64,000 nt of DNA from a virus. The notes below the pieces were generated by a model. The model worked only from the letters and a program-made list of their open reading frames with translations. It searched no databases and was not told the DNA's origin. Both the position numbers and the translations under genes were made by a program. Shown in pieces: positions 17,948-22,469 of this stretch. Positions within the stretch are counted from its first letter, which is position 1. Every line of letters starts with the position of its first letter. The stretch lies in the IMG/VR virus record IMGVR_UViG_3300037804_000252, positions 24,700 to 88,699 of that record; one strand, written 5' to 3'.

Positions 17948-18703
17948 TTATAAGTTTTCGTAATCTATTGTTGTAACACCTCGTTTTTGTACAACTTGTG
18001 CTGAACATCGATTTCCGAATTGTATTGATTTTGGAATATCGTTAGTATCTAAGAACTCTTTCACAAATCCTGCTACAAATGTATCACCAGCCCCTGAGAT
18101 ATCCATAATCTCTACTTGTTCGGTTGGATATACTATATCATGATACATACATCCATCTTTATCTAATGTAACTATTAATTTTTCTACCAACCACCCATTG
18201 TCATTAATATATTCTATACTATTTTGAAATTCTGAACGGTTCTGTTTTATAAATCGTAAATTTTCACACCAATCCCCTAATTGTTTTTTCGTATCACAAA
18301 TTACATTTGGGTGTCTGAATGAGATAAAACTAATAACTTCTTCCGTTAAAAACCCTTTATTATAATCAGAGATTACAACCATATCATAATCAGAATAATT
18401 AATAGAAAGAAGTTGTGCATCGGTTATTCTATCTATTCGTTCTTCCTCATCTATTCTTAGTAGTAAACTGTTTGATGCTTCATGAATGTGTCTTGTCTTT
18501 TTTATAGTAGATTCATGTGTAATAAAGTCAACTTCTAATTTTAGTGATGTAAGATTACTCAATACATTCAATCCCATTCCACCATTACTAACTGTCCTTA
18601 AAGGAATAAATACAGGAGCAGGTCCTTCTGGTGATAACCTTGGTGTATCTCCATAAATGAAGATATCATCACATTGTTCTCCTATTAATAAAACCTTATT
18701 CAT
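17948..18703 (-). CDS. Heptose-7-phosphate kinase-like (RfaE/HldE domain I, PfkB family)
   Basis: RLSPEGPAPV, VVISDYNKG and DISGAGDTF signatures. Confidence 0.85.
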   Translation of the reverse strand: MNKVLLIGEQCDDIFIYGDTPRLSPEGPAPVFIPLRTVSNGGMGLNVLSNLTSLKLEVDFITHESTIKKTRHIHEASNSLLLRIDEEERIDRITDAQLLSINYSDYDMVVISDYNKGFLTEEVISFISFRHPNVICDTKKQLGDWCENLRFIKQNRSEFQNSIEYINDNGWLVEKLIVTLDKDGCMYHDIVYPTEQVEIMDISGAGDTFVAGFVKEFLDTNDIPKSIQFGNRCSAQVVQKRGVTTIDYENL

Positions 18704-19085
18704 TGTTTAATATTTTTGTTGTACTAAAATTATCTATTCTATTAAAATAAACAATTGATTTTGCGTATTGTCCACCTATTATAGATTTATTTTTATAATC
18801 AGAACCAATTACAAAGACATCTGGTTCAAATGTTTTTATTAATTGTTCTAGCATTTCAGATGAATCAAATATCACAACTCGTTTAACACCCTTTATTCTT
18901 TCTAAGTTGTACTTTCTTTCCTCTTGTGAGTGAAAGGGTCTATCATCACCTTTAAGTTCTTTAACTCGTTTATCAGAGTCTATTCCTACTACCAATAGTT
19001 CACCAAAACTAGCTGCGTGTTCTAATAATCTAAAATGAGCATGATGTAAGACATCAAAACAACCATTCACCCAAACTTTTTTCAT
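18696..19085 (-). CDS. Heptose-1-phosphate adenylyltransferase-like (RfaE/HldE domain II)
   Basis: NGCFDVLHHAH, VGIDSDKRVKELKGDDRP, GSDY, C-terminal STT. Confidence 0.82.
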   Translation of the reverse strand: MKKVWVNGCFDVLHHAHFRLLEHAASFGELLVVGIDSDKRVKELKGDDRPFHSQEERKYNLERIKGVKRVVIFDSSEMLEQLIKTFEPDVFVIGSDYKNKSIIGGQYAKSIVYFNRIDNFSTTKILNNE

Positions 19086-20236
19086 AAGAACTTTTTTAAT
19101 TCAGTAATTACCATATTAGAAGTTATTGATTTAGTACACTCAAAATGTCTTTCTGTTCCTTTATGTTCTGGACACCAATTCCAATCTCCTGCATCTAACC
19201 TATGTTTATTAAAACACCCACCACATTTATCTTTAGGTGCACCGATTCTTATACAATCTTGCATTTCTGCCCATTTTTCTGAAAACCCACTGATTAAAAC
19301 TGTCTTTGTTCCTAATGCCCAACTTAACCAACTTAATCCACTACCAATACCAATAAATGCTTTAGATTTTTCCATTTGATTCATAACCGATTGTAAACTT
19401 CCCTCTGGGTGTTTTTTGATACCATCTGGGTGGTAGTTACCCATATATCCACTCTCTTCTCGTGAAAGTAATTTTACTTTATACCCTTTATCATTTAACC
19501 AATCTACCACATCTTGCCAACCAGTTGGATTATTCCAATATTTTGGTTGTGCAGTTCCATGAAAAGCAATCGTAATTAACTTATCATCTTTTTTAATTTT
19601 TTTATTTGAGATTTTAGGTTTTATTTCTACATAATCAAGTCCTAAAATATCAGACCCCATTTTTTGTAAAGGTTGTTCTAAAAAGTTATTTGGATTTAAT
19701 AAAGGGTTTGGATTATTATTATCAGTATAATAAATTCCTAACTTGTACATAGCATATAGGTTATGTACGGTTGAACCAGGATTTACAAACTTTAGTGTTG
19801 GGTAGTGTTCTTCAAATAAATAATTATGAAAAGTTGATACAATTAATTCACAATTATGCTTTTTTCTAAAAGTTTCTATATATGGAAACCATGCTAATGT
19901 ATCACCAAGTGCTTTTGAATCAAATGCAATAAATACTTTTTTATTTTTTAGATTAATTTTGTGAGTATGAACCAAATCATCACCATGGTAAATATCAATT
20001 TTCCAATCTATAAAATATTCATAATTTGATTTAGCCCAATGACCTGCCTTTAATTTGTTTTCGTATAAAGTTTGTCCATTTTTTTGATTTACAAATTTTA
20101 CTAAATATTCGTTATCACTATTACCAACAACCTCTACATATGGACCATTTACAAAATGAATGTTAAATGTATCACCATCTACACTTGGTAGTTGTTTAAT
20201 ATTATTTTTATTTATTTTTATATTATCGTAAATCAT
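19082..20236 (-). CDS. Autotransporter-type protein O-heptosyltransferase (TibC/Aah, BAHT family)
   Basis: SKALGDTLAWFPY, KYWNNPTGWQDVVDWL, FIGIGSGLSWLSWALG, LISGFS, and Cys cluster CGGCFN...WCP...FECTKSI. Confidence 0.82.
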   Translation of the reverse strand: MIYDNIKINKNNIKQLPSVDGDTFNIHFVNGPYVEVVGNSDNEYLVKFVNQKNGQTLYENKLKAGHWAKSNYEYFIDWKIDIYHGDDLVHTHKINLKNKKVFIAFDSKALGDTLAWFPYIETFRKKHNCELIVSTFHNYLFEEHYPTLKFVNPGSTVHNLYAMYKLGIYYTDNNNPNPLLNPNNFLEQPLQKMGSDILGLDYVEIKPKISNKKIKKDDKLITIAFHGTAQPKYWNNPTGWQDVVDWLNDKGYKVKLLSREESGYMGNYHPDGIKKHPEGSLQSVMNQMEKSKAFIGIGSGLSWLSWALGTKTVLISGFSEKWAEMQDCIRIGAPKDKCGGCFNKHRLDAGDWNWCPEHKGTERHFECTKSITSNMVITELKKFL

Positions 20237-22402: not shown

Positions 22403-22437
22403 AACAAATTTATTTATAGTGTAAATACACTACAATA

Positions 22438-22469
22438 CAAATATAAGAAAAAATTATTTGAATACCAAA
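22438..22469 (-). promoter_or_regulatory. Bacteroidota sigmaA-type promoter upstream of the glycosylation operon
   Basis: Minus strand TTTG (22466-22469), 20 nt, TATATTTG (22438-22445); matches TTTG-N19-21-TAnnTTTG. Confidence 0.75.

Follow-up and report, generated by a model that had tools for sequence, protein, structure and literature searches.

What does a large phage do with a protein O-heptosyltransferase encoded among its virion genes, and which proteins would such an enzyme modify? The locus that raises this question lies in the 64,000-nucleotide (nt) window analyzed here, by which we mean the whole stretch: the right-hand 64 kb (positions 24,700 to 88,699) of the 88,699-bp IMG/VR viral contig IMGVR_UViG_3300037804_000252, whose completeness was put at 44% by CheckV. 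The window is the structural region of a large myovirus, with a GC content of ~31% and its genes all on the minus strand, and it holds a four-gene operon at 17948-22402, the second gene of which encodes a 384-amino acid (aa) enzyme of the BAHT family. A sequence-only reading of the operon had proposed a protein O-heptosylation pathway whose acceptors may be the phage's own structural proteins. In the analysis presented here, a phage-encoded acceptor is the best supported outcome, but "structural proteins" proved too broad a description, and the repeat tracts of the fibers are the likelier targets. We consider it reasonably probable, given the genes and their neighborhoods, that this phage heptosylates, extends, and methylates its own fiber repeats; the existence of a glycan coat on the virion is what we infer from this gene content.

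A BAHT-family enzyme and the partners of its clade

By sequence, the 384-aa protein is a BAHT-type O-heptosyltransferase of the GT-B fold. It matches the family model TIGR04414 (hepto_Aah_TibC) with 273.3 bits (cut-off 200; E 3e-81) over profile positions 25-373 of 374, compared with 27.1 bits (cut-off 185.3) and 25 bits (cut-off 437) for the lipopolysaccharide (LPS) heptosyltransferase models TIGR02193 and NF008204, respectively, and it aligns with the TibC structure 4rb4 (E 3.9e-49). The earlier assignment to the protein-modifying BAHT enzymes, and not to the LPS enzymes of glycosyltransferase (GT) family 9, is borne out by this profile comparison, as is the earlier observation of a cysteine cluster of the TibC/Aah type, for which all four iron-finger residues align.

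In the accessible part of the TibC structural report (PMC4358343), Asp-110 is given as the catalytic base, Thr-226, Lys-230, Trp-305, and Arg-286 as donor contacts (Arg-286 touching adenine N1), and Pro-300 (Ser-294 in AAH) as the residue that decides between the use of D,D- and L,D-heptose. The same source describes Cys-339, Cys-342, Cys-358, and Cys-370 as an iron finger, a motif unique to TibC, which mediates binding to the beta-helix of the substrate (PMC4358343). In a HMMER alignment, phage residues D112, T228, K232, and W303 correspond to TibC D110, T226, K230, and W305, and C338, C341, C355, and C367 correspond to C339, C342, C358, and C370, with iron binding a prediction for the phage protein. 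Two positions differ from TibC: V284 stands at the site of Arg-286, and G298 at that of Pro-300. All of the mapped functional residues, including V284 and G298, are invariant in 10 of 10 phage-clade sequences. As far as the alignment tells, the phage enzyme retains the catalytic residues and the iron finger but lacks the adenine contact. Because the residue at the Arg-286 site is Val here, the use of adenosine diphosphate (ADP)-heptose is read from the neighboring HldE genes, and the conserved residues, together with these adjoining HldE-like genes, point to heptose transfer from ADP-heptose to protein Ser.

Phylogeny separates the phage enzyme from the characterized members of its family. The trees are quick or FastTree builds, unrooted and with several long branches; in an IQ-TREE analysis of 41 rows, the clade of Aah/AIDA plasmid enzymes was split off by a branch of length 0.77 with 100% support in the Shimodaira-Hasegawa-like approximate likelihood ratio test (SH-aLRT). 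The description of the enzyme as TibC/Aah-like is therefore kept at the level of the family (TIGR04414) and given up at the level of the TibC/Aah clade, as the phage protein sits across this 100%-supported branch. We refer to the TibC/Aah side as clade I and to the other side as clade II. Catalytic, donor, and iron-finger residues are kept in 47-50 of 50 clade II rows (the Asp in 49/50, the Lys and Trp in 50/50). The Arg-286 site holds R in 70 of 72 clade I rows vs. 13 of 50 clade II rows, and the Pro-300 site is S, A, or P in clade I and G in 44 of 50 clade II rows.

The relatives of the 384-aa enzyme, bacterial and viral alike, are nearly always encoded beside a protein with repeats of the GTSGSSGTS type. 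Loci were scanned, within fetched flanks of 6-10 kb, for open reading frames (ORFs) with at least seven consecutive Gly-X-Y triplets. Before counting, two loci with no alignment longer than 250 residues (L039, L041) were dropped, as were four that came from the same contigs as others (L136, L140, L155, and L157, duplicating L020, L026, L031, and L032). Among the 95 loci with a long alignment after the second scan, a repeat of at least seven triplets and at least 40% Ser/Thr was present in 27 of 36 at 37% or more identity to the phage enzyme vs. 5 of 59 at 36% or less (Fisher p 2.5e-11, with relatedness ignored). The trees give the same division: a repeat lies nearby for none of 15 rows on the TibC/Aah side and 20 of 26 on the other side of the IQ-TREE phylogeny, and for 2/72 clade I and 34/46 clade II rows of a 118-row FastTree phylogeny.

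The partners differ in kind between the two clades. For clade I, AIDA-type or autotransporter proteins were the partners at 5 of the 7 loci tested (L180 being omitted from this test) and at 3 of 3 annotated plasmid loci. In bacterial-type clade II loci, which have no other similarity to the phage, a repeat gene is present in 25 of 29, usually 35-1300 bp away, and the partners carry signal peptides or lipoboxes by eye. In Methylobacter luteus (locus L021, 6950-9152), the enzyme gene begins 40 nt after the end of the gene for a secreted 287-aa repeat protein (Pfam Collagen, 33.1 bits), and these two genes make up an island between mfd and housekeeping genes; the sole autotransporter beta-domain of this genome lies 3 Mb from the enzyme, and two other genomes have none. 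Genome-wide searches with PF01391 place the collagen-like matches next to the enzyme in 1 of 1 cases for Methylobacter luteus, 1 of 1 for G006, 2 of 2 for G009, and, counted by collagen-like proteins, 1 of 2 for G005. The PF01391 matches of G007 and the DNA-pattern matches of G017 are not placed on the contigs of L030/L043 and L141, respectively, and were counted neither way.

Two arrangements in these bacterial loci are recorded as observations in their own right. In gammaproteobacterial metagenome-assembled genomes (MAGs; L030-L032, L043, and like loci), small lipoprotein-like ORFs lie to either side of the clade II enzyme, each with a signal or lipobox, a long G-S-S tract, and a poly-Asp tail, an arrangement that resembles a compact module of three genes. 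In Selenomonadales/Acidaminococcaceae genomes, two paralogous clade I heptosyltransferases are encoded in tandem, and each of them makes up a subclade of its own (loci L034-L038, L042, L165, L170-L172, L177, L179, L186, and L188).

Since the conserved neighbor of the clade is a Gly-Ser/Thr triplet-repeat protein, the repeat tracts of giant fibers are the likely acceptors in the phage. The 3162-aa tail fiber next to the operon contains one short tract of this kind (Table 1), and similar tracts occur in the fibers of relatives L003, L013/14, and L017. A far more extensive candidate lies outside the window, at positions 1-6939 of the record, where a fiber-like protein of at least 2313 aa (PF01391, 31.1 bits) has as its last 66 residues before the contig end 22 G-[TS]-[STAG] triplets; the triplet repeat probably broke the contig assembly at this point. 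In near-complete relatives, proteins of 3994, 3929, 4590, and 3867 aa have hundreds of such triplets, with T/S at X and mostly S at Y; G-[TS]-S triplets account for the greater part of those of 3929 to 4590 aa. The likely acceptors are thus residues 2052-2078 of the fiber and, above all, the protein of at least 2313 aa. Two giant ORFs (at least 2313 and 4585 aa) occupy record positions 1-21604, before window position 1, and the first of them also holds dozens of ~60-aa FSGSG...LFNIP...SGSVTASV repeats, as well as domains that appear cupredoxin-like by eye.

Comparison with other phages extends this pattern. The nearest cultured relatives by the large terminase (TerL) are Microcystis phage Mel-JY01 (59.1%) and Flavobacterium phage immuto (58.6%). 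Mel-JY01, whose GT4-BAHT fusion is encoded beside a giant repeat protein, has seven collagen matches, none of them more than 5 kb from the fusion, and the BAHT-less immuto has zero. The phage LR756501 has 72 collagen matches, one of them in the gene adjoining its fusion, and in the MAG that holds L024 a six-triplet DNA pattern has its sole match on the phage-like contig of the enzyme, at a distance of 10.5 kb. Taken by itself, this co-occurrence at the level of phages is weak, given how frequent collagen-like Ser/Thr repeats are in phage fibers generally.

A shorter motif was also considered. In a shuffle test, [ST][GAS]S is over-represented in the outer virion proteins, with z values of 18.6, 15.5, 6.3, 4.5, and 4.0 for the proteins of at least 2313, 4585, 288, 3162, and 1390 aa, respectively (35 seen vs. 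16.3 expected in the 3162-aa fiber). It is at or below expectation in most non-fiber proteins, such as the enzymes, portal, and terminase, and the major head protein has a z of 1.5. The excess could reflect either a sequon or just fiber architecture. The modified serines of TibA are reported in N-S-G-G and T-S-A-A contexts in the accessible text of PMC4358343; in the triplet repeats, each Y-position Ser/Thr likewise precedes Gly, a resemblance that we offer as a remark only.

The operon, its accessory enzymes and its setting

The four minus-strand ORFs of the operon (Table 1) are translationally coupled: the first two abut (gap of 0 nt), and the ORFs overlap by 4 nt and 8 nt at the second and third junctions. 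The locus order is fiber, (chaperone), 90-aa ORF, GT fusion, heptosyltransferase, (HldE genes), 123-aa ORF, a gene resembling nicotinamide mononucleotide adenylyltransferase (NMNAT), TerL, and portal, and it is kept in 15 of 15 IMG/VR loci of the first scan, as far as the contigs reach and down to 73% TerL identity. Three further elements of the sequence-only reading hold up here, namely that the four genes form a tightly coupled operon, that it lies between head and tail-fiber genes (it is flanked by the fiber and chaperone genes on one side and by TerL, portal, and major head protein genes on the other), and that it stands behind a host-type promoter instead of the phage's late box.

TABLE 1. 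Features of the operon and of its surroundings, in window coordinates.
Feature	Position	Strand	Evidence or remark
BAHT-family protein O-heptosyltransferase (384 aa), clade II sister to TibC/Aah	19082..20236	-	TIGR04414 273.3 bits
Fusion protein (721 aa), whole ORF	20237..22402	-	
GT4 (GT-B) domain of fusion protein, aa 1-318	21449..22402	-	Glycos_transf_1 39.7 bits (cut-off 26.4); Glyco_trans_1_4 28.1 bits
S-adenosylmethionine-dependent methyltransferase domain of fusion protein, aa ~329-483	20954..21418	-	Methyltransf_24 48.2 bits (cut-off 26.3); TylF 22.7 bits, just below cut-off
GT25-like GT-A domain of fusion protein, aa 493-721	20237..20926	-	fold matches; invariant E-A-D replaces DxD (homolog alignment)
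Heptose-1-phosphate adenylyltransferase-like protein (HldE domain II / HldC type), 129 aa, accessory	18696..19085	-	rfaE_dom_II 108.6 bits
Short PfkB-type kinase, heptose-7-phosphate kinase-like (HldE domain I / HldA type), 251 aa, accessory	17948..18703	-	rfaE_dom_I 116.7 bits
Sigma-70-like promoter: TTGGTA, 17 nt, TATATT (TATATTTGTAT)	22440..22468	-	in the operon's 71-nt leader
Nine Ser/Thr-rich Gly-X-Y triplets, fiber aa 2052-2078, in-window candidate acceptor tract	26466..26546	-	weak PF01391 match at same place
Giant tail fiber, 3162 aa, candidate acceptor	23211..32699	-	Gp53-like_C 42.3 bits at C terminus
Tail fiber assembly chaperone	22804..23196	-	Pfam Phage_tail_APC 42.9 bits; five tail-fiber assembly PHROGs
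90-aa coiled-coil-like ORF, upstream flank of operon	22474..22746	-	conserved in relatives; no family match
123-aa ORF, downstream flank of operon	17521..17892	-	own late box; conserved in relatives; no family match

The late box, TATATTTATATA, occurs ~20-30 nt before the start codon of ten minus-strand genes, including the fiber gene, the 123-aa ORF, and the NMNAT-like gene, and was not found before the operon. Upstream sequences from the loci of 70 relatives comprise 45 distinct sequences, all 45 with TT[GA]G..-N16-18-TAT[AC]TT and none with the late box. Elsewhere on the coding strand of the whole record, the extended TTGG-N-TATATT element is found only before the primase gene (37859-37887) and in the adjoining gap. 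The element in the operon leader thus reads as a conserved sigma-70-like promoter of the early/middle class. Because no terminator-like site was found between the operon and the fiber gene, late read-through into the operon is also possible. The two copies near the primase gene, at 38132-38160 and 37859-37887, share the 307 nt between that gene and a GIY-YIG endonuclease gene, and the copy at 38132-38160 precedes no ORF of at least 100 aa. A T4-type late promoter was considered and rejected: TATAAATA lies 8 nt before the operon start codon, but motifs of this type are not enriched in the window (19 found vs. 13.2 expected, with 10 of 100 shuffles reaching 19), and the match was given no weight. 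Contigs from two seawater RNA libraries (X15, X17) contain exact pieces of all four genes, which is weak evidence, as DNA carry-over is possible, and cannot show transcription, starts, or levels.

The 721-aa protein had been described as a fusion of GT4, methyltransferase, and GT25-like domains; the first two are above their Pfam cut-offs, and the third is sub-threshold and recognized at the level of fold. phrog_2170, a glycosyltransferase family, spans aa 3-318. A homologous GT4 adjoins or is fused with the heptosyltransferase in Mel-JY01, in LR756501, and on nine phage-like MAG contigs: the Mel-JY01 heptosyltransferase makes up the C-terminal portion of a 1226-aa fusion protein that contains a GT4, the 735-kb phage LR756501 encodes a heptosyltransferase-GT4 fusion of 738 aa behind a second GT4 protein, and on the nine MAG-binned contigs the GT4 gene is directly upstream. 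Because this adjacency or fusion recurs, GT4 and the heptosyltransferase can be regarded as a conserved functional pair in phages, to which the methyltransferase and the HldE genes are add-ons. The methyltransferase domain is present in 66 of 71 judgeable relatives and absent in L011-L016.

The C-terminal domain matches PF01755 with 17.4 bits (cut-off 24) and does so below threshold in 4 of 6 homologs (best E 2.5e-4); 22 of its 30 Atlas matches fall within a PF01755 set. An AlphaFold model built from a six-sequence alignment (mean predicted local distance difference test score 69.9, predicted template modeling score 0.76) has as its best PDB matches in Foldseek Mimivirus R655 and human GLT25D1/COLGALT1 (E ~3e-7, template modeling (TM) scores of 0.56-0.63, 12-16% identity), and a profile search against PDB sequences gave nothing under E 0.2. 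Given sub-threshold Pfam matches, Atlas matches, and fold matches obtained with a model, the name "GT25-like" is reasonable and formal membership is not reached. As the match is at the level of the family (TM 0.56-0.63, 12-16% identity), it is uninformative on the acceptor.

For the two small proteins, HldE domains give the best family matches. The 129-aa protein scores 108.6 bits with rfaE_dom_II (cut-off 181.5), ahead of glycerol-3-phosphate cytidylyltransferase (74.2), and 134.9 bits with phrog_7878. The 251-aa protein scores 116.7 bits with the 315-position rfaE_dom_I profile (cut-off 345), with ribokinase next at 45 bits; it also matches PfkB (68.6 bits) and, over its full length, phrog_8133 (249.5 bits), and has a GAGD motif at aa 204-207. 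Among the loci of 80 relatives, both genes are present in 46, both are absent in 32, and the kinase occurs alone in 2; the adenylyltransferase occurs alone in four loci of the first scan. Neither GmhA (SIS_2, PF13580) nor GmhB (TIGR01656) has a match in the whole 88.7-kb record, in agreement with what had been noted for the window, or in the records of five relatives, including G010 (100% complete) and G011 (96%), and SIS_2 has no match in the complete Mel-JY01 genome. The earlier proposal that these HldE domains make ADP-heptose is thus favored by the best family matches and tempered by scores below cut-off and by dispensability in the lineage. With GmhA and GmhB not found and the HldE pair dispensable, the genes would represent an optional booster of a host pathway instead of a self-sufficient one.

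Other virion genes in the window encode a baseplate wedge protein and two fiber proteins, one of 1390 aa and one of 1208 aa that carries an S74 chaperone domain; after these come the 3162-aa tail fiber and its assembly chaperone, with TerL, portal, and major head protein next. The window is nearly whole (at least 0.86 of sampled words) in 14 public runs from 14 different studies, the majority labeled as seawater, marine, or estuary metagenomes, and relatives are encoded on 319 IMG/VR contigs, with at least 586 further matches among genome contigs. A megablast search of the operon against 50,697 phage records gave zero matches.

Several neighboring genes deserve separate mention. The 90-aa and 123-aa ORFs are paralogs (28-32% identity in tblastn cross-matches) that bracket the glycosylation operon in all relatives and have in common a C-terminal Y-P-x-G-Q-[IL]-D-L-x-K-G motif. 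A 1145-aa cytidylyltransferase-like protein (14040-17477) was considered as a pathway member and rejected, because its N-terminus matches NMN adenylyltransferase models and the BAHT-less phage immuto has, similarly placed upstream of its terminase gene, a 907-aa protein annotated by the depositors as NadR/NMNAT. This protein, which has a variable middle part, probably serves in salvage of nicotinamide adenine dinucleotide, outside the glycosylation system. Just upstream of the fiber gene, at 32950-33771, lies a gene for a 273-aa protein resembling UDP-glucose/GDP-mannose dehydrogenases, with the N-terminal and central domains only, which could supply a uronic acid donor for the GT4 or GT25-like domains. 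The tail fiber has an Intein/Hint-like insertion at aa 2713-2831 (24207-24563; Pfam Intein_splicing 28.3 bits, below the cut-off of 35.8), which by eye ends in ...SHN and has no Cys/Ser/Thr at either junction, and which may be a degenerate or non-splicing Hint domain.

Weighing the candidate acceptors

A number of observations weigh against fiber repeats as the acceptor. The acceptor is assigned from gene neighborhood alone, and the association within the clade may stem from few evolutionary events; the Fisher p is uncorrected for phylogeny. For 12 of the 46 clade II rows, the flank that was fetched lacks a repeat (at four of these loci the sequence stops with the enzyme gene). The huge phage LR756504 encodes an enzyme of clade II, yet has neither a collagen match nor a (G-S/T-S/T)x6 DNA pattern. 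The long repeat tracts lie ~37-44 kb from the operon, the adjoining fiber has just nine triplets, and at least six triplets in the fetched part of the fiber were found in just 13 of 80 relatives' loci. On the side of the donor, the change from Arg-286 in TibC to Val-284 leaves the nucleotide uncertain, and both HldE-like proteins score under the NCBIfam curated cut-offs. To these is added the general frequency of collagen-like repeats in phage fibers noted above, and a promoter of the early/middle class that would equally fit action on host proteins.

This last point leads to a different reading, in which the phage remodels the host surface: secreted Gly-Ser/Thr-repeat lipoproteins or adhesins of the host would be heptosylated early, masking receptors or excluding other phages, and the virion would remain unglycosylated. 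The secreted or lipoprotein-type partners of the bacterial clade II enzymes, with their signal peptides and lipoboxes, agree with this, as does a promoter type common to the primase gene. We nevertheless find such a role unlikely, as these very repeats abound in giant proteins of the phage itself, the cassette directly follows the fiber and chaperone genes in every examined relative, the enzyme adjoins collagen-like proteins of the phage in Mel-JY01 and LR756501, and neither a host nor a host target can be named.

Phage fibers and spikes are often beta-helical, and the enzyme could instead recognize a beta-helical strand-loop-strand, as TibC and Aah do, in tailspike, fiber, or capsid proteins, with no special role for the repeat tracts. 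A TIGR04414 score above cut-off fits this, as does the excess of [ST][GAS]S in all outer virion proteins, not solely in the triplet tracts, and the iron finger conserved here is, in the available TibC report, the element that binds the beta-helix (PMC4358343). Recognition of this kind nonetheless seems improbable to us: the enzyme falls outside the clade with AIDA-type partners, and the gene neighborhoods of its own clade favor triplet repeats. The autotransporter beta-domain (PF03797) has no match in the 88.7-kb record, a search in which AIDA repeats were not covered separately, so that the earlier statement that the window contains no autotransporter can be extended to the whole record for this domain.

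That the acceptor is not a protein at all, but host LPS, capsule, or phage DNA modified by an auxiliary metabolic or serotype-converting module, is very improbable, for although LPS synthesis is the best-known setting of GT4, GT25, and GT9 enzymes, HldE supplies the assembly of the LPS core, and weak secondary NCBIfam matches to LPS heptosyltransferase I exist, the protein-modifying family scores 273 bits against 27 for that model, the iron finger, described as a unique TibC motif in the accessible text of PMC4358343, is kept, the phage appears lytic and carries the cassette in its structural region, and the partners of both clades are proteins.

Proposed pathway and comparison with known systems

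Under modification of the phage's own fiber repeats, the kinase and the adenylyltransferase would phosphorylate host-made heptose-7-phosphate and adenylylate heptose-1-phosphate, yielding ADP-D,D-heptose. The GmhA isomerase and GmhB phosphatase steps would be left to the host, and relatives without the HldE genes would draw wholly on the host pool. The heptosyltransferase would then act on Ser/Thr in Gly-[Ser/Thr]-[Ser/Thr/Ala] triplets, as the gene neighborhoods across bacteria and phages suggest; here, these would be the short tract of the 3162-aa fiber and the long tracts of the giant fiber-like proteins upstream of the window. The recurrent pairing of a GT4 with the heptosyltransferase, in adjacent or fused genes, suggests that the heptose may be extended by the GT4 and the GT25-like domain and the glycan capped by the methyltransferase. 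The promoter class suggests that the enzymes would be made in early or middle infection, ready with the donor pool once the late fiber genes are translated. Modification would take place in the cytoplasm, before or during fiber assembly, as for TibC/Aah substrates, and the outcome would be fibers with a methylated, heptose-based glycan. The broader proposal, that a second, so far unrecognized branch of the TibC/Aah family found in Proteobacteria and several unrelated large phages is dedicated to Gly-Ser/Thr repeats, and that marine and freshwater phages combine it with fused GT4/GT25-like/methyltransferase modules and ADP-heptose genes of their own to cover kilobase-long fiber repeats in a methylated heptose glycan, is one whose prospects we judge to be evenly balanced.

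No publication on a phage-encoded BAHT enzyme or on a link between BAHT and collagen-like repeats was found in a literature search that left aside most subscription journals and supplements. If the proposal is correct, this would be, as far as that search shows, the first phage-encoded protein heptosylation system and, after the mycobacteriophages, the second example of phages that glycosylate their own virions, by a different mechanism. For a glycosyltransferase family that has until now been linked only to the autotransporters of pathogens, it predicts a new class of acceptor in the form of collagen-like Gly-Ser/Thr repeats, and O-heptosylated collagen-like proteins would constitute a new glycoprotein class. 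The results also suggest that the database name "autotransporter strand-loop-strand O-heptosyltransferase" misnames roughly those family members that fall in clade II. As the phage lineage is abundant, glycan-coated fibers could affect host recognition, stability, grazing, or defense interactions at sea.

The closest known system is that of TibC/AAH (TIGR04414; PDB 4rb4, 4rap), with which the phage enzyme shares the family, the catalytic Asp, the Thr/Lys/Trp donor contacts, and the four-Cys iron finger, as well as the placement of the enzyme gene near the gene of its acceptor and, presumably, cytoplasmic O-heptosylation of Ser from ADP-heptose. A ring-shaped dodecamer is a further hallmark of the TibC/AAH enzymes. 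It differs in belonging to a separate, well-supported sister clade whose partner is a triplet-repeat protein and not an AIDA-type beta-helix autotransporter, in the Arg-286 that clade II mostly lacks (Val here), and in the Gly that 44 of 50 clade II rows carry at the stereoselectivity site. It is also encoded by a phage, is coupled or fused to a GT4 in phages, and comes from an operon that brings its own HldE halves.

Among viruses, mycobacteriophages encode glycosyltransferases that glycosylate the C-termini of their own capsid and tail-tube subunits (Freeman et al., 2023, Cell Host Microbe; PMC12619734). The aim at the phage's own virion proteins is the same as that predicted here from genes, but the accessible part of that report mentions no heptose, BAHT, or nucleotide-sugar genes (PMC12619734), and the target proposed here is fiber repeats. 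Mimivirus encodes collagen-like proteins along with the glycosylating L230 and R699 and the putative R655, according to the available portion of PMC9546862. As in Mimivirus/COLGALT1 collagen glycosylation, our phage combines repeat proteins with enzymes predicted to glycosylate them, and the C-terminal domain of its 721-aa protein is closest to the GLT25D1/R655 folds; those enzymes, however, act on hydroxylysine, whereas Lys is absent from the Ser/Thr-bearing repeats of the phage, and a lysyl hydroxylase was not seen.

The donor genes resemble HldE (or HldA plus HldC) in comprising the same two folds, a PfkB kinase and a cytidylyltransferase-like adenylyltransferase, side by side and with these as their best family matches. 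Unlike HldE, they are split, short (251 and 129 aa), below the NCBIfam cut-offs, and dispensable in the lineage, and they come without GmhA, GmhB, or the HldD epimerase. For the acceptor, the nearest parallel is offered by the BclA-type collagen-like proteins of the surface filaments of the Bacillus exosporium, in which Thr is O-glycosylated within triplet repeats, as proposed here; that system differs in its rhamnose-based sugars and its other enzymes, and is not encoded by a phage.

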